Source of the DNA: a virus | Lineage: Duplodnaviria; Heunggongvirae; Uroviricota; Caudoviricetes | IMG/VR virus record: IMGVR_UViG_2711768076_000009 | Coordinates: 1-21,559 of that record | Length of the DNA stretch: 21,559 nucleotides | Direction: 5' to 3' (one strand) | In this document: positions 3,184-21,411 of the stretch, in pieces | How positions within the stretch are numbered: the stretch's first letter is position 1 | Layout of the letters: each line of letters begins with the position of its first letter | Made by a program: the position numbers and the translations under genes | Notes under the pieces: model-generated | The model's database searches: none | The model's input: the letters and a program-made list of their open reading frames with translations, nothing else | Told to the model about the DNA's origin: nothing

Positions 3184-6100
3184 TGTACAATCCTCCATCC
3201 CGACGCGATGACTGCATAATTGACACAACCCTGCTGTCGATCAGATCCACCAGTCCCCTGGCTGAGCGCGCATCTATCTCGCCATTGCTCCCTTGATTCT
3301 GAATGCTGATGTGATACACGGGAGAATAAACAAACCCCCCGCCACTATTCACATTGCCAATGGCTCTGACCCCAAGAGAGCCGTCCGCTGCCCGTGTCAG
3401 TGGCATGATAGCTTCAGGCCCGGCCTCGCCCATCAGCCCGGCACCTTTCGCAAAAGCAAAATACGTCGGTGTATCCACAATAGTGTTACTGTAAGCACTC
3501 AGATTTGCCGATGTGTAAACACCACCTTTTGCGTTTGCCACCGCCCCCGAAATCCATCCGCCGACCGTACCAAGCCACCCTCCGGCACCGGAGAGTGACT
3601 TCAGTCCGTTAACAATGGCCGCATTCATCAGAATTTTTGAAACTTCCTGGAGAATTGAACTCCCCCAGTTTCTCCAGTCCACAACATTTCCGGCCAGTGC
3701 ATCGGAAATATTTGATACCAGTCCGTCCATAGTGGAAACGACAGCATCTGCCGCCTGCGAAGCATAATCGGTGGCACTGTCTGCCCAGTTGGTCAGCCCC
3801 TCCTGGAGTCCTGCATTCCAGTTATTACGTAAAGCATCGGCCTTTGCATAATAATCCTGCTGATCGCTGAGACGCTCTTCCAGATATTTTTTATTCAGTT
3901 CTTTCTCCTGTTTCCACAGGGCTTCTTCAATTTCTCCGGCCTGATACTGTCTCAGCAGCTCGTTATTTTTCTGCTCAAACTCATGCCGGATACTCCACAT
4001 TTCCTGGAGTCGTTCACGCATCCGTGAGCCTTCACCATATCCCAGTAACTGCGCGTCGTTAGACGCCCGGGTACTGGCATTACTGTCCGCCAGGCTGCTT
4101 TCATACGCAGCAAGCTGCTCACGAATCTTTTTCTGGTCGATGAGTGCTGCATTCTGCAAAAGCGTTTTTTTCTGCGCTTCTGACAGGGTTGATAATTCGC
4201 CCTGACTGACCTGATATTTCATCTTAGCCAGTTCAGTATTCTGCCCTGCCAGTGCTATTTGTTCTTTTTGCTGTTTAATCAGCCGTTTATAAATATCTTC
4301 TGTTTTTTCCGCTTCGGTCTTTTTATGCGCTTTGGGTTTATTTGCCTGGTTATTTCGCCAGGCATCCAGTGAGTTATTGATATAATTCTGTCTGGCTGTC
4401 TGATACGCCTCTCCCACAAAGCCGAGATCATCCGCAGCATAACCCAAGCGGGCACGCTCACGGGCTTCCCCCTTCAGGCGGGACAGAGCCAGTTCGCGCT
4501 CGCTGTTATTCAGTGCAGTCTGCTGTTTATCATCCAGGGTTGCCTGTGGTAGCCGTAACGGTACATTCACCAGCCCCTGTCGCTGCTGAAGTAATTCATT
4601 ACCGAGCCCGAGAAGGCGATTAAACTCGGTATGCTGCCCATTCATGATCAACAGGGACTGATACGCTTTGTTTTGTTCCGCGGCCTGTTGACGGATCAAC
4701 GCCACCCGTCGCTCCTCCAGCCCGGCAAGCACATCCTGAATGGATTGCGCTTTGCCCTGCATTTGTGTGAGACGGGACTGTTCAACTGCCAGTTGATTTG
4801 TTGCTTCTGCAAGCCCTTCTGTGACAGTTTTTACCGACGTCATGTGGTTAATCATAAAACCGTTATCGGTTGTCCAGCCCGGGTTTGCCAGCACATACTG
4901 ATAGCCAGCAATTTTTTCCTGTAAGGATTTAATCTTACTTTTCTGCTCGTCAATTAACCTGTTTTGCTCATCAAGTGCCTGCCGCGTCTTTTCCTCATTA
5001 TCTGACGCTTCAGGAAGCGACATTGCCGACGTTTTCTGGCGAATTTCGTCGATTGTTGCGGCATACTGGCGTGCAGATTCTCTGGCCTGCTCCTGATTCT
5101 GATACATCGTGTACCAGGCCGTCGCCCCCAGCATGACGAGTCCCGGCACACCACCAACCAACCCCAGCGCACCACTTAACAGACGACTCCCCACTGACGT
5201 GACAGTATTCAGCGTTGTCTGTGCCGCTGTTCTGGCCGCAATATTACGGGTAAGTGACGCCTGGGCAGCTGTCAGCTTCGCTTCTGCTGCGGCCTGCCTT
5301 TCGGTACCGCGAGCAGCAACAACCGCCTGTTGCGCACGATAAACCGCCGCACGCGCCCTGGCGGTTGCTATCTGTGTCCCCCGAAGTTGCGCTTCAGCAA
5401 GAGCCACTTCGTTTCTGGCTGCAGTAATTAATCCGGCAGTTGCAGATCCAGCAGAAGACGCCATATTGCCAAAATATCGGGCTACCCCGACGGCAACCAG
5501 AGCACCGGCAGCGGTTGCCACGGTGTCAATATTGCCTGCAAGACCATTCAGCACCCCGGAGAGCGTCTTCGTCACTCCGCTTGCCTCGTTCGCACCACCA
5601 ACCCAGGCCATAAAGGCGTTTTCAACTTTGGTTGCAGAGGATGAAACCGTATCAGGCATTGCTGCATATTCATCACGCAACGCCCCAAGCTGACTAATCA
5701 GTGCAGGAACAACCTTATCGGCGGTCAACTTTCCGTTATCCGCCATGGCCTTCAGATCCTTACGGGCAACTCCCATTCCCGCAGCCAGAGCACGAATAAC
5801 ACGATCGCCGTTCTCATTCACCGAGTTAAACTCTTCACCGCGCAGCACTCCCTGCGCCAGAGCCTGACTGAACTGCGTGATCACCGAACTGGCTTCTGCT
5901 GTACTGGCACCGGATAATTTCAGGCCCGTGGAGATCGCCTCGGTGACTTTCAATACCTCCTCAGAACTGTAACCATACTCCCGCATGGAAGCTGCAGAGC
6001 GGGCAAAAAGGCTGGCGTTATCAGAAAAAGCCGTCCCCGTTCTCTGGCTGATCGCCATTAATTCACGCTGTGATGACTGAAAATCATCACTGGACTGTGA

Positions 6101-6409
6101 GGCCTGCTTCAGACGGGCATTTACTGAATTCCACTCATCGGCGAGAGAAATAAGATGACCGGTAGCAAAAGCCCCGGCAAATGCCCCCGCCATGTTCAGT
6201 GCCGAAGATTTAGCTGTATTTATCTGATCCGTCACTTCTGCCAGTGCACGCCGCATTTCACGGGATGCAGCAGCGGACTGCCGGCCTCCGTTCTGCATGG
6301 TACGGTAGTAATCCTGCCCCATACGCGAAGCCCGGGAGATCTCTGACTGGAATGACCGGGAATTTGCCGAGATTTTAATAATCAGTTCACGTAATGTCGC
6401 CACACTCAT
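3176..6409 (-). CDS. Tail tape measure protein (1077 aa)
   Basis: Long Ala/Gln-rich ORF with extended heptad-like regions and a Gly-rich C-terminus; lies between G-T and M; GGAGA Shine-Dalgarno immediately before the ATG. Confidence 0.9.
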   Translation of the reverse strand: MSVATLRELIIKISANSRSFQSEISRASRMGQDYYRTMQNGGRQSAAASREMRRALAEVTDQINTAKSSALNMAGAFAGAFATGHLISLADEWNSVNARLKQASQSSDDFQSSQRELMAISQRTGTAFSDNASLFARSAASMREYGYSSEEVLKVTEAISTGLKLSGASTAEASSVITQFSQALAQGVLRGEEFNSVNENGDRVIRALAAGMGVARKDLKAMADNGKLTADKVVPALISQLGALRDEYAAMPDTVSSSATKVENAFMAWVGGANEASGVTKTLSGVLNGLAGNIDTVATAAGALVAVGVARYFGNMASSAGSATAGLITAARNEVALAEAQLRGTQIATARARAAVYRAQQAVVAARGTERQAAAEAKLTAAQASLTRNIAARTAAQTTLNTVTSVGSRLLSGALGLVGGVPGLVMLGATAWYTMYQNQEQARESARQYAATIDEIRQKTSAMSLPEASDNEEKTRQALDEQNRLIDEQKSKIKSLQEKIAGYQYVLANPGWTTDNGFMINHMTSVKTVTEGLAEATNQLAVEQSRLTQMQGKAQSIQDVLAGLEERRVALIRQQAAEQNKAYQSLLIMNGQHTEFNRLLGLGNELLQQRQGLVNVPLRLPQATLDDKQQTALNNSERELALSRLKGEARERARLGYAADDLGFVGEAYQTARQNYINNSLDAWRNNQANKPKAHKKTEAEKTEDIYKRLIKQQKEQIALAGQNTELAKMKYQVSQGELSTLSEAQKKTLLQNAALIDQKKIREQLAAYESSLADSNASTRASNDAQLLGYGEGSRMRERLQEMWSIRHEFEQKNNELLRQYQAGEIEEALWKQEKELNKKYLEERLSDQQDYYAKADALRNNWNAGLQEGLTNWADSATDYASQAADAVVSTMDGLVSNISDALAGNVVDWRNWGSSILQEVSKILMNAAIVNGLKSLSGAGGWLGTVGGWISGAVANAKGGVYTSANLSAYSNTIVDTPTYFAFAKGAGLMGEAGPEAIMPLTRAADGSLGVRAIGNVNSGGGFVYSPVYHISIQNQGSNGEIDARSARGLVDLIDSRVVSIMQSSRRDGGLYSA

Positions 6410-6419
6410 TCTCCGGACG

Positions 6420-6440
6420 AAAAAAAACCGCCGAAGCGGT
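6420..6440 (-). terminator. Intrinsic-terminator-like hairpin between T and tape measure gene
   Basis: Minus strand reads ACCGC-ttcg-GCGGT followed by a run of 8 T (plus-strand A run 6420-6427); located 10 nt upstream of the tape measure ATG. Confidence 0.5.
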
Positions 6441-6449
6441 TATGTTGAC

Positions 6450-7138
6450 TCACTGAGACACTATTAAAAGCGCGTTTTCCAGTCCAGCAAATGGATCTGA
6501 TACGCCTTCTGTCTGCTCCTTCTCCCACTGAAGAAGCGCATCATTCAGTGGCACTTTGACCCCCTGCGCACCGTAAACAGCTGAAACAATCTGGGCAGCC
6601 CGGATATCAGCCCGTTCGTCCCCCAGCGGGCTGAACCTGTCAAATTCTGCCCACATCATGATTTCTGATGCGGACATTTCCCGGCGTAACTCTGACAATG
6701 TGCGCCCCATCCTGAGCGCCAGCATCATCAGAAAACGCATCCCCGGAAGCGCTACTTTTTTTTAACCTCGCCGGCATCACTGATCAGTTCCAGAGACTGC
6801 CGAAGAAGCCGCGCATGCACCGGGCCATACACGGCAATCACCTGTTCACGATCATCCTCTGAAAATACAGGTTGCAGTCCGGTATCACACAGAACATCGA
6901 TGAACAGTTCAACATCCGCTTCCAGATTTCGGCGGGCGCGCTCCGCAACGGATAACGGTGTCTCATCATCTTTTGCTTTAACGATCTCCTGCCAGCGCAA
7001 CCAGGCTTCTGCAGAAGGTTCCCGTAATACAACCGTTGCCCCTTCCCATTCAGGCACATCAACAGTTTTATGGCGAAACCCCGACATCGTTGCCAGTGCC
7101 AGATTACGGATATTTTTAGTCATCACATCTATCCTCAT
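6450..7138 (-). CDS. Tail assembly chaperone G-T fusion via programmed -1 frameshift
   Basis: The T reading frame (ORF 6450..6740) is the -1 frame relative to G and is open back through the slip site; predicted junction ...GEVKK-KVALPGMRFLMM.... Slippery heptamer A AAA AAG at 6761-6755 on the minus strand. Confidence 0.7.
6752..7138 (-). CDS. Tail assembly chaperone G (0-frame product)
   Basis: 128-aa acidic ORF ending GEVKKK-stop; sits immediately after the major tail gene (TAATG overlap at 7138) and before the tape measure, the canonical G position. Confidence 0.8.
   Translation of the reverse strand: MRIDVMTKNIRNLALATMSGFRHKTVDVPEWEGATVVLREPSAEAWLRWQEIVKAKDDETPLSVAERARRNLEADVELFIDVLCDTGLQPVFSEDDREQVIAVYGPVHARLLRQSLELISDAGEVKKK
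6755..6763 (-). other. Slippery sequence (A AAA AAG) for G-T -1 ribosomal frameshift
   Basis: Plus-strand T run 6756-6763 preceded by C6755; minus-strand G frame reads GTT AAA AAA AAG TAG. Confidence 0.65.
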
Positions 7139-7842
7139 TAACTGACGGTAACAGTGCAGGAAGTAGAGGTCACCTTGTTAACAGGGCTTGCTGAATCAGA
7201 AATCTCGCAGGTATACGCACCGGCATCACCGGATGCTGCTGATGCCTTACTGAACGTTGCCGCCGTCTGTCCGGAAACAGGAGAACCACCTTTTTTCCAG
7301 GCATAAGAATAAGGCGGCACACCACCCGCAGCCTCAACCGCCATTTCAAGTTTCGCTCCAGAAGAAACCCGCAGCGTGCTTTTTAAATCGACCTTCACTT
7401 TCAGCGGCTCTGTCGTCAGCACAGGTTTACCTTTCAGGCGCAGAGAAAACGTTGCAGCCACAACACCATTGGTTCCTGCAGACCAGGTATGCTGACGCAC
7501 CTCTGCCATAAAGGTAAATCCGTTGCCTGACGGAAAAATAACTTTAAAGCCATACGTGGTGTCATTGTCATAGGCACTGCGCAACGCGTTCTGGGCAGCA
7601 TTCAGATAAAAGTTGCCTGACATGGAAATCTCTGAAGTAGCCCCAAGGCCGTTAATATTTTCCTGCTCAACAGAACACAGCGTGGTGACATCAATATCCT
7701 GCTTTTGTCCTGCGGTAAACTGCACCTCTTTGATTGTACAGCTCAGGCCAAGATAGCTGGCAGAATCCAGGGTTTCTGCTGTTACCGGTGCAGACGAAAT
7801 CATAATTTTCGTCAGTTGCGAACGCTCAAAATTAGAGGACAT
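7138..7842 (-). CDS. Major tail protein with C-terminal Ig-like domain
   Basis: 234-aa ORF upstream of G/T; C-terminal ~90 aa (KVKVDLKSTLRVSSGAKLEMAVEAAGGVPPYSYAWKKGG...CTVTVS) resembles a Big_2-type Ig fold as carried by lambda gpV. Confidence 0.8.
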   Translation of the reverse strand: MSSNFERSQLTKIMISSAPVTAETLDSASYLGLSCTIKEVQFTAGQKQDIDVTTLCSVEQENINGLGATSEISMSGNFYLNAAQNALRSAYDNDTTYGFKVIFPSGNGFTFMAEVRQHTWSAGTNGVVAATFSLRLKGKPVLTTEPLKVKVDLKSTLRVSSGAKLEMAVEAAGGVPPYSYAWKKGGSPVSGQTAATFSKASAASGDAGAYTCEISDSASPVNKVTSTSCTVTVS

Positions 7843-15766: not shown

Positions 15767-16962
<1,196 letters not shown>

Positions 16963-18827: not shown

Positions 18828-19200
18828 CTGAACCTCCCCGGCGCGTTATGAGCGCCACCAGCGAACCGATATCCTGGTTATTCAGAAACGTCAGGATTTT
18901 AACGGCTAAAGCAGAGACGATTACGGCACCAATAGCATCCAGAGGTTTATCACTGTATCCGGTCAAATTCGCCAGTTTGGAACCAACTAACCCAGAACAC
19001 AAAACCCCAGCGATATATGACACTATGAAATATGCCAGTCGGCGCGTTGCCGTCAGATCTGCAGTTGTCGCTATGTAGAAAACAGCTCCTGCAAATGCGC
19101 CAAATACAACACCATAATCCGTACCTGTAAACAGGCCATAAATACTGACTCCCGTTAGAACTCCTCCGGCTAACCCAGTACCGGAAATAGGATCGGACAT
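18814..19200 (-). CDS. Holin/antiholin-like membrane protein
   Basis: 128-aa Gly/Ala-rich multi-TM ORF with a charged C-terminus; first gene of the lysis cassette; AGAGGTGG Shine-Dalgarno. Confidence 0.55.
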   Translation of the reverse strand: MSDPISGTGLAGGVLTGVSIYGLFTGTDYGVVFGAFAGAVFYIATTADLTATRRLAYFIVSYIAGVLCSGLVGSKLANLTGYSDKPLDAIGAVIVSALAVKILTFLNNQDIGSLVALITRRGGSGGTK

Positions 19201-19366
19201 TAAGCCACCTCTTATGACTGCGGGTTCTCTGAGAAAAAAATGTAAGGAGAGGAATGGAGCTCAGACTCACCCCCTTATACCAAAGGGGAAGTGAAAGTGA
19301 TTCCCAGCTCCTGAAATGCAAAAGCCCCCATTGGGAGCCTTCGAAGTGGAGAAACTCTAGCTAATT

Positions 19367-20263
19367 TTATTTTGTTGGTTTAGGGCCCAATGTAAATTTT
19401 GATTTAGTTCCTTTTCTTAACCGTTTAACATCAGGGAAAATATCCACCAACCGTTCAGTACACTTAATCAAAGATTCAGTACATAGCAACATACCCATTA
19501 TTATATATCCAAAATCGAACTTGTTAAAACAACCAGTCCCTCTCCCATTCGGTTCCATTTTGTAATATGATATAGGGAGTATGTGTGTGTAATGCGATAG
19601 AAAATCAAACATCACTTTAAACGATTTTGGGTCTTTCCCTAGTTTAATCAATAAATCGTCTCTATTAGGAATTGTTAAAGCCTTGCCTGACAAGCAACGT
19701 TTCCTAGTACCACTATCAAGTGATAAAAAAGCAGGGTTTTTATTGAGTCTTTCCGCAATTATACTCTGTTGCTCATTATAAAACTCTAATGCTTCTGTAT
19801 TATCACTTTGCGTGAATAATTCTATCCTTTTTACACAATCATTCATGTGCATAACATTTAGCTTTGCTGACCAAGCCTCTTCTGAATCTGGTGCTTCAGA
19901 CAAATACATAAACAGAAGTTCAGCTTCAAGGATCGCCCTGACATGAGATGCTATAGAAGCAAAATCCCAGAAATCGTAATCTCGCTTAGCCCATCTGGAC
20001 TTAGGAACATTAGAAATCATAATCGAAGCATGAATGCAAATTCGCGCAAATATATATGTTGACCAACCTTGATAAGCCTCAGCCATTCGCACACCTACTC
20101 CCTGACTTATCGCATTGGCTTCACAAACAGCTTTATCAAACTCCCTAAGAACATGGTGGAAGTCATCAATTGTAAAATCATTACGTTCGAGTGGATTCTC
20201 TAAGTTTTCTGCCTTATCTGATTTCATGTTGCAATGGTCCAAAAAGTAATTAAACGCATGCAT
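19367..20263 (-). CDS. Hypothetical protein, AT-rich cargo (moron) gene between tR' and the lysis cassette
   Basis: 298-aa ORF MHAFNYFLDHCNMKSDKAENLENP...; AT-rich relative to the flanking phage backbone by eye; no signal peptide, TM segment or motif I can name; ATG lies 9 nt downstream of the tR'-like terminator. Confidence 0.7.
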   Translation of the reverse strand: MHAFNYFLDHCNMKSDKAENLENPLERNDFTIDDFHHVLREFDKAVCEANAISQGVGVRMAEAYQGWSTYIFARICIHASIMISNVPKSRWAKRDYDFWDFASIASHVRAILEAELLFMYLSEAPDSEEAWSAKLNVMHMNDCVKRIELFTQSDNTEALEFYNEQQSIIAERLNKNPAFLSLDSGTRKRCLSGKALTIPNRDDLLIKLGKDPKSFKVMFDFLSHYTHILPISYYKMEPNGRGTGCFNKFDFGYIIMGMLLCTESLIKCTERLVDIFPDVKRLRKGTKSKFTLGPKPTK

Positions 20264-20271
20264 TGTAATAC

Positions 20272-20293
20272 AAAAAACCCGCTCATCGGCGGG
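20272..20293 (-). terminator. tR'-like intrinsic terminator downstream of late promoter
   Basis: Minus strand reads CCCGC-cgatga-GCGGG followed by TTTTTT; located about 60 nt downstream of the predicted pR' start. Confidence 0.65.
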
Positions 20294-20347
20294 TTTTGCT
20301 TACTTTACCATCGCATACAAAATCGGCAAAATATCATGTTTACACAA

Positions 20348-20376
20348 AATTTACGCAATTTAATTGACTTTTGCAA
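20348..20376 (-). promoter_or_regulatory. pR'-like late promoter (-35 TTGCAA, 17-bp spacer, -10 TAAATT) with probable Q-utilisation site
   Basis: Immediately downstream of the Q-position gene stop. The minus-strand stretch AATTAAATTGCGTAAATTTTG closely resembles the lambda pR' region AATAAAATTGGGTAAATTTGA as I recall it. Confidence 0.55.
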
Positions 20377-20380
20377 TATC

Positions 20381-21049
20381 TCATCGTGAAAAGATCGCTT
20401 TTTGTTGCGATCTCTTTTTCACGGTGGAAATCAAGGATTCTGTATCGAGATTCTTAAAAATGTCGCACATCTCACGCCAGTAGTTCGCATAATTATGGCT
20501 CCAGTTGTCTGGCTTAACTCCACACAGTCTGGCAAGCTCCTGTCGCTGGTAGACCTCACGCCCGGTAACCCATCCCCTGACATCCTGTGCCGCCAGCCAT
20601 ATCAACTTCTTCACACGCTCCAGCGTTTTTCCTGCAATTTTTCTGGTACCAGACTGGGTTTTAAATTCATTCCACACCCACTGCGTTATCACGATCTGAT
20701 GCTCCCAGCAAATGTTTCCGCCGTAACACCACAACAACCAGGCTTTATGATGTTCTTCAAGAGACAGAACAGCCCGCCGCCACGATGATGTCGAAAACTC
20801 AACCGGACTGACCAGAGGAATTGACGTCCCCTTCGCCAGCGATTGTTTCCCCGGGATTGGTGGATTATCCCGCGTAATCATTTTTCCGGTCACTTCATCT
20901 CGGTACCGGATTTTTTTACGCCTGTAACGCCCTGTATCGAACATGGCATTCTCCTGCCAGGCTTCAAGCTGACCTTTTGTTGCCCCACTCAAATCAGCGG
21001 TGGCGATAATGAGCTGCTCACGCACAAACTGTAAATACTGGTTATTCAT
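20381..21049 (-). CDS. Putative late-gene antiterminator (Q-position protein; family not recognised)
   Basis: About 222 aa from the ATG at 21049, which overlaps the rusA stop as ATGA (ORF track starts at GTG 21055). Sits between rusA and pR'/tR'. Not similar to lambda Q as I recall it, so the function is inferred from position only. Confidence 0.45.
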   Translation of the reverse strand: MNNQYLQFVREQLIIATADLSGATKGQLEAWQENAMFDTGRYRRKKIRYRDEVTGKMITRDNPPIPGKQSLAKGTSIPLVSPVEFSTSSWRRAVLSLEEHHKAWLLWCYGGNICWEHQIVITQWVWNEFKTQSGTRKIAGKTLERVKKLIWLAAQDVRGWVTGREVYQRQELARLCGVKPDNWSHNYANYWREMCDIFKNLDTESLISTVKKRSQQKAIFSR

Positions 21050-21411
21050 GCGCACTCCAGTTCTGTGATTTTTATCCCCAGCCGCCCACCAGGAACGAGC
21101 TGACCGCGCACAATATTGATTTCATCAAACTGCTCGTCGTCTATGAGAAGCCCCGCATGCGTCAGTGCATCCAGCGGTGCTTTCAGGATATTGTCCAGGT
21201 CCCGACGGCGCTTATCCGGCGGCTCTGCAGTAATTTTTATTGCCAGTCTTCCGGACAGGTTTAATTTCAGCCGCTGCTGGCGAACAATTAGCGCCACATC
21301 ACGGCGATAACGCTTTCCGGCCTCCGAGATGAAATACGTATTGCCATGACGTCGCCAGTAGGTATTCACCGTCGGCGGGTAAGGCAAAACAAATTCTATG
21401 CGTTCAGTCAT
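21046..21411 (-). CDS. rusA: Holliday junction resolvase RusA
   Basis: 121-aa ORF; PYPPTVNTYWR and DKRRRDLDNILKAPLDALTHAGLL motifs match E. coli RusA (PWPPSNNRYY, DRRRRDLDNLQKAAFDALT) from memory. Confidence 0.85.
   Translation of the reverse strand: MTERIEFVLPYPPTVNTYWRRHGNTYFISEAGKRYRRDVALIVRQQRLKLNLSGRLAIKITAEPPDKRRRDLDNILKAPLDALTHAGLLIDDEQFDEINIVRGQLVPGGRLGIKITELECA

Follow-up and report, generated by a model that had tools for sequence, protein, structure and literature searches.

Stx phages carry stx between the antiterminator gene Q, with its promoter and terminator pR'/tR', and the holin genes. In the window, the 21,559-nucleotide stretch of viral DNA analysed here, the same position is filled by a gene of another kind, raising the questions of what this gene is, how it came to lie there and what it might do for the prophage or its host. 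A preliminary description had marked an intact open reading frame (ORF) in this slot as a separately acquired moron that could not be placed in any family. Our own reading, held with moderate confidence, is that the gene is a standalone DUF5677 candidate defence gene carried as prophage cargo.

The ORF is present and intact on the minus strand (19367..20263), encoding 298 aa from the first ATG. Its true start probably lies 36 nt downstream of this ATG, at Met13 (window position 20227), defining a DUF5677-family cargo gene at 19367..20227 with a product of 286 aa. The RefSeq CDS WP_053897442.1 (861 nt, 286 aa) begins at Met13, nearly all homologs measure ~280 aa and start near this position in the homolog alignment, and good Shine-Dalgarno sequences precede the equivalent start in homologs. 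The Shine-Dalgarno sequence of the window copy is weak, and the AlphaFold model predicts disorder for residues 1-26 of the 298-aa version. Because the RefSeq CDS, the homolog starts and the homolog Shine-Dalgarno sequences point to Met13, the start probably lies 44 nt beyond the T-run of the upstream terminator; the first ATG (20263) lies 8 nt beyond it, and the distance of 9 nt given originally has to be revised accordingly.

The AT-richness first judged by eye is borne out by measurement. The cargo gene has a GC content of 0.366 (GC3 0.30), compared with 0.519 +/- 0.031 in all other 861-nt windows (z -4.9), and is the most AT-rich 861-nt stretch of the sequence, with no other stretch of this size as low. 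Gene GC also falls below that of the flanks in nearly all of 44 homolog loci.

The gene sits after Q and pR'/tR'-like elements and before the holins, as had been described, and each of these features could be located. Upstream on the coding strand lie RusA (21046-21411) and the antitermination protein Q (20381-21055, minus strand; PF06323, E 5e-87; PHROG 304, E 4e-107), followed by a 117-nt spacer that runs from Q to the first ATG. This spacer contains a pR'-like late promoter (20348..20376, minus strand), with TTGCAA at 20376-20371 and TAAATT at 20353-20348 separated by 17 nt, an arrangement after Q that we take to resemble lambda pR'. It scores 8/12, under the threshold of the promoter scan, and was read directly from the sequence. 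A transcript from this promoter would be ~70 nt long if it ended at a tR'-like intrinsic terminator (20272..20297, minus strand), which is formed by a 9-10 bp G+C-rich hairpin (20297-20274) and a T6 run (20277-20272). The terminator folds at -15.5 kcal/mol (z -4.45), and none of 200 shuffled sequences folds as well.

The promoter scan found no consensus promoter between the terminator and the cargo start. The earlier statement that there is no room for an own promoter is nevertheless not secure, because a -10-like TACAAT (20262..20267, minus strand) overlaps the first ATG as a candidate promoter element and the probable start lies further downstream. TATAAT or TATACT occurs at the equivalent post-terminator site in some other lineages. 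Enrichment of such hexamers is marginal (4/8 lineages, P ~0.01 against gene-body background); 294 of 5000 shuffles reach the observed count, and three of the lineages are not independent. Given this marginal enrichment, we do not claim an own promoter from the hexamer.

Downstream, a first holin gene (PF16931; 18814..19200, minus strand) forms the edge of the cargo slot and is followed by a second (PF05449; 18546-18827), a GH19 endolysin and a spanin-like ORF. A hairpin 3' of the cargo gene (19320..19344, minus strand; 11-bp stem, weak U-tract) is possibly a second terminator before the holin, with a folding z of -1.5 that is not significant. The spacer at 19190-19366 is found solely in the 17 E. 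coli genomes that carry the gene. The best sigma-70 match of the region, TTAACA-16 nt-TATAAT (11/12), lies at 19500-19527 on the minus strand, inside the 3' end of the DUF5677 ORF. It faces the holin genes and may be an internal promoter or a chance match in AT-rich DNA.

How the gene came to occupy this slot is indicated by its distribution. Carriers make up 17 of 5,426 complete E. coli genomes, and in each the gene lies between Q and the holin. More widely, slot homologs of 43-99% protein identity directly follow Q genes of three unrelated Pfam families, namely PF06323 (9 loci and the window), PF06530/DUF1133 (10 loci) and PF03589 (3 loci), and are themselves followed by holins, lysozymes or a DNA methyltransferase. 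When the window is compared with prophages of other Q types, the DNA is homologous from position 20296 in the hairpin as far as the stop codon at 19367. Conversely, the cargo gene is missing from prophages in which Q, pR' and the hairpin are 88-90% identical to those of the window; these hold other cargo in the slot, either a 65-aa ORF with a DNA methyltransferase, or IraM, DUF1737 and DUF3927. Homology of these empty-site prophages to the window stops at 20272/20268, at the last T of the terminator.

The empty-site prophages retain the hairpin, which is thus a shared tR' and the recombination junction of backbone and cargo, with the cargo beginning right after it. We considered whether the hairpin might instead belong to a mobile cassette and rejected this, since empty-site prophages keep it and non-prophage homologs are without it. 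The hairpin AAACCCGCC-N-GAGCGGGTTTTT is 92% identical among the window (20272-20297), L036 (7885-7910) and L045 (7978-8002). These prophages have Q genes of unrelated families, and their DUF5677 proteins share only 43-59% identity. Nothing in the surroundings of the hairpin is as well conserved, as expected of a recombination linker.

An N6/N4 DNA methyltransferase gene shares the slot in several other prophages. It follows the DUF5677 gene in L001-L005, L034 and L041 (Citrobacter and related hosts; 7029-8081 in L003-L005) and stands in its place in an E. coli prophage (L052, 1983-3032). Several cargo genes are interchangeable in this slot.

Several morons are known from the Q-to-lysis interval, including stx in Stx phages, the nmpC/lc porin gene in DLP12 and PA-2, and csp genes in Qin. 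The window gene shares with them the slot after Q/pR'/tR' and before the holin, an atypical composition and a variable content of the slot, and its position is equivalent to that of stx, as first proposed. The window protein is, however, unrelated to the products of these genes and is probably neither secreted nor membrane-bound. A lambdoid-prophage moron in the sense of Juhala and Hendrix is recognised as an extra gene between backbone genes, variable in presence and atypical in composition, and the cargo gene has all three properties. Such a moron would also bring its own promoter and terminator for expression in the lysogen, for which the marginally enriched -10-like hexamer and the non-significant 3' hairpin are the candidates here. 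Together with the three Q families and the different cargo of related prophages, its atypical GC content upholds the idea of separate acquisition, and sequence comparison supports its assignment as a horizontally acquired single-gene moron of a lambdoid, HK97-like E. coli prophage.

The protein can be assigned to a family after all. Its match to Pfam DUF5677 (PF18928) covers model positions 25-156 (132/166) and scores 24.4 bits (E 3.3e-5), 2.7 bits under the gathering cut-off of 27.1. RefSeq already names the product "DUF5677 domain-containing protein" in all 17 carrier E. coli genomes, and 12 of 49 close homolog clusters have a precomputed PF18928 match. Among eight relatives scanned, with the RES and MtlR-like fusion proteins left out, six (P0077, P0080, P0102, P0121, P0128 and P0133) pass the Pfam threshold at 28.6-47.5 bits. 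An exhaustive profile search recovered 1,194 clusters at 50% identity with E <= 0.001, including 623 with E <= 1e-10. Membership of a divergent DUF5677 subfamily is in this transitive sense well supported. The window protein differs from Pfam DUF5677 in its score below the gathering cut-off and in conserved elements of the subfamily that lie beyond the model, namely an N-terminal CEA motif, an NGRGTG loop and a C-terminal FP...RKG.KSKF..GPK tail. PHROGs and NCBIfam scans of the cargo protein returned no match, and a tblastn search of 50,697 INPHARED phage records did not find it.

Selection on the gene is strongly purifying (dN/dS 0.04-0.07), and the ORF is intact in every homolog locus. Two relatives carry additional domains. 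P0159 (660 aa) joins a DUF5677-like N-terminus to a C-terminal RES toxin domain (53 bits), and P0153 (478 aa) has an N-terminal MtlR-like region that scores a sub-threshold 23.1 bits.

AlphaFold yields a confident, all-helical model of the protein (pLDDT 85.4, pTM 0.84; calculated pI 7.6, mass 32.9 kDa). No hydrophobic segment is present, the highest Kyte-Doolittle average over 19 residues being 1.31. A Foldseek search of the PDB and BFVD with this model returned no significant structural relative, and a profile search of PDB sequences with the cargo family gave only noise. Across 55 diverse members of the family, R109, S223 and H227 are invariant, and E113, D142, R146, W99 and D100 are near-invariant (residue numbers follow the 298-aa ORF). 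R109/E113, D142/R146 and S223/H227 form i/i+4 pairs on three helices of the model. This periodicity, together with the conservation, suggests that the six residues line a single putative polar pocket.

Helical RNases of the HEPN type (Abi2/AbiD-F, AbiV, RnlA) were considered as a possible affiliation. The catalytic HEPN motif Rx4-6H, which opens the last core helix of that fold, is not conserved in either homolog alignment (A1 or A2), and for this reason the protein is not filed as HEPN. The His position of R74-x3-H78 is not conserved, and the invariant R109 and H227 lie 118 residues apart.

A link to anti-phage defence comes from the Aditi system. Aditi is a validated two-gene anti-phage system, composed of ditA and ditB and described without a known mechanism or domain assignment (Millman et al. 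2022). In Table S5 of DefensePredictor, PF18928 is placed at residues 276-427 of UniRef50_A0A096AIV3, the DefenseFinder representative of DitA, with probability 99, and a 219-aa DUF5677 protein appears in Table S10 of the same work among the predicted novel defence genes (PMC13092281). DUF5677 would then be common to DitA, by the published table, and to the window protein, by its sub-threshold Pfam match, and both DitA and the window-protein family occur in defence-island contexts.

The two proteins nevertheless differ in architecture and setting. DitA has an N-terminal part of ~275 residues, whereas the window protein consists of the DUF5677-like core alone in its 286 aa. DitA is partnered by DitB, whereas the neighbours of the window gene are Q and a holin, and DitB is not among the top PADLOC families of neighbour genes at the homolog loci. 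According to its name, the DitA representative comes from Bacillota, whereas the window gene occupies a late-operon slot in a prophage of Enterobacterales. No model of PADLOC-DB 2.0.0, a release in which we assume the Aditi models to be included, matched the window protein at E <= 10, and none matched the relatives P0077, P0080, P0102, P0133, P0121, P0128 and P0159 at E <= 0.01. Without the N-terminal half, a DitB partner or a PADLOC match, the window protein does not qualify as a DitA. The N-terminally extended relatives, P0077 among them, were also rejected as DitA proteins, as PADLOC does not recognise them. Judged from the probable domain in common, the window gene is best described as a minimal relative, carried by a prophage, of the DitA domain of Aditi.

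Homologs also occur outside prophages, where their neighbours bear on function. Seventeen such loci lack an upstream Q gene and come from hosts that include Vibrio, Rheinheimera, Celerinatantimonas, Paraburkholderia, Thiobacillus, Acidithiobacillus, Methylobacterium and Rhodoferax. Fifteen of the 17 have no terminator-like hairpin upstream, and the two hairpins found (L018, L024) are weak. Counted as raw presence in the 17 loci, not as enrichment over genomic background, the defence neighbours within +/- 3 genes (87 proteins) include a type I REase, a short pAgo (3e-173), ThsB (3e-129), AbiTii, PD-T4-2, PD-Lambda-3, PD-T4-5, NsnA and PDC-S49, and those among the remaining genes within 8 kb include a CBASS cyclase with 2TM effector and CapP, type I S subunits, a DRT reverse transcriptase, MzaA and WYL. 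These non-prophage neighbourhoods are defence islands. In Shewanella, Photobacterium and Pseudomonas, further standalone homologs (44-51% identity) reside on plasmids that are conjugative or mobilizable, adjoining IS elements and plasmid partition genes. Among the 44 loci there is no conserved partner cluster apart from phage Q and lysis genes.

Individual loci show arrangements of their own. In two Vibrionales loci (Vibrio; L006 4012-5934, L027 6753-7928), the homolog comes immediately after a co-oriented TPR gene, of the same cluster in both, and the two may form a two-gene system. The N-terminal DUF4365 domain of the L006 copy matches the model of an Argonaute-associated REase (5.4e-11). 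In Rhodoferax sp. U2-2l (L028 4792-9626), a short pAgo (6101-7636) is preceded by an upstream ORF (4792-6174) and followed by a 554-aa protein, in which a DUF5677-like N-terminus is joined to a ~280-aa extension with an RGAHVH (Rx4H-like) motif. P0056 is 79% identical to this protein over its full length. We rejected DUF5677 as an APAZ-linked effector of this short pAgo, as the C-terminal extension matches no solved chain, including APAZ partners; the more probable partner is the separate ORF of 460 aa that precedes the pAgo.

The preliminary description had left the choice among toxin, virulence factor and defence gene, and defence is the best supported of these options. The island and plasmid contexts, the domain link to DitA, the conserved polar residues and the RES-toxin fusion of one relative make it a reasonable reading. 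Against it stand the missing PADLOC match and DitB partner, the absence from INPHARED, and a distant, serine-recombinase-linked Bacillota DUF5677 ORF that did not belong to the five ORFs found to reduce plaquing when tested in E. faecalis (PMC12632615). If the gene does act in defence, its soluble, all-helical product would protect the lysogen, through superinfection defence or abortive infection. Upon phage infection, the putative polar pocket would then perform an effector step, either enzymatic or dependent on a ligand. Expression in the lysogen would probably be low, supplied by leaky tR' read-through from a constitutive pR' and/or by a weak promoter in the 44-nt spacer, and Q antitermination would boost it upon induction. 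Exclusive dependence on Q, as predicted earlier, is something we can infer from position only.

The same position suggests the strongest competing explanation, in which the gene depends strictly on Q, is expressed late and supports the lytic cycle of the phage itself, for instance in counter-defence, host takeover or the exclusion of competing phages during induction, instead of protecting the lysogen. In 22 of 25 readable prophage/viral loci, the gene directly follows Q and the terminator and is co-oriented with the lysis genes, and the lack of a consensus promoter between terminator and start and the weak Shine-Dalgarno sequence of the window copy fit such a role. Its main argument is the location behind a strong terminator, which is more in keeping with late expression than with expression in the lysogen. 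The main counter-argument lies in the standalone relatives, which occur in chromosomal defence islands and on plasmids without an upstream Q or terminator. Such non-phage occurrence is unusual for phage lytic-cycle or anti-defence genes, and the gene is found in no INPHARED phage. We consider a purely lytic role unlikely, though it retains appreciable weight.

Mobility of the gene could also point to a toxin-like or addiction selfish gene, or to a regulatory or sensor protein without effector activity, that hitch-hikes in variable regions. Homologs are standalone and mobile, beside IS elements and plasmid partition genes, the RES fusion in one relative suggests that DUF5677 may be a regulatory module, and hokD and other toxin-antitoxin genes reside in the same prophage. 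Opposed to this are the missing conserved partner of antitoxin size next to the gene, the strong purifying selection across very distant hosts and the active-site-like conserved polar residues, and we regard hitch-hiking of either kind as improbable. A host virulence or fitness factor like stx, bor or lom, unrelated to phages, is very improbable: the slot is the stx position of Stx phages and several carrier strains are avian-pathogenic or animal isolates, but a secreted toxin or virulence factor is unlikely because the protein has no hydrophobic segment for a signal peptide or membrane anchor and its relatives occur in environmental non-pathogens (Vibrio, Shewanella, Rheinheimera, Paraburkholderia, Thiobacillus, Methylobacterium), with defence and not virulence genes as neighbours.

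For the candidate defence gene, a more speculative proposal can be made, which we put forward tentatively and with a correspondingly low probability. DUF5677 might be an unrecognised all-helical effector or enzyme fold that is sufficient alone for defence, DitA being its extended version. In lambdoid prophages its expression might be wired to the late switch, with slight read-through at tR' in the lysogen and a surge driven by Q on induction, so that the prophage would protect both the lysogen and its own lytic cycle from competing phages.

Were the defence reading to hold, the gene would allow the mechanism of the Aditi-type domain to be approached in a minimal system of one gene, and the Q-to-lysis junction of lambdoid prophages would join the recognised hotspots of defence cargo. 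It would also raise the questions of what drives expression of a defence gene in a late operon and of how its carrier phage escapes harm. Should the gene have no defence function, it would be an ordinary moron, with carriers making up 0.3% of the complete E. coli genomes. The gene makes a good candidate for experiments, but specialists would not be surprised to find a candidate defence gene in a variable prophage region.

Elsewhere in the prophage, a 1,196-bp IS5 occupies window positions 15767-16962 (transposase ORF 15914-16894). The prophage of E. coli STN0717-20, otherwise 99-99.7% identical to the window, lacks this insertion, which splits a YfbU-family gene located between the lysis and terminase modules.
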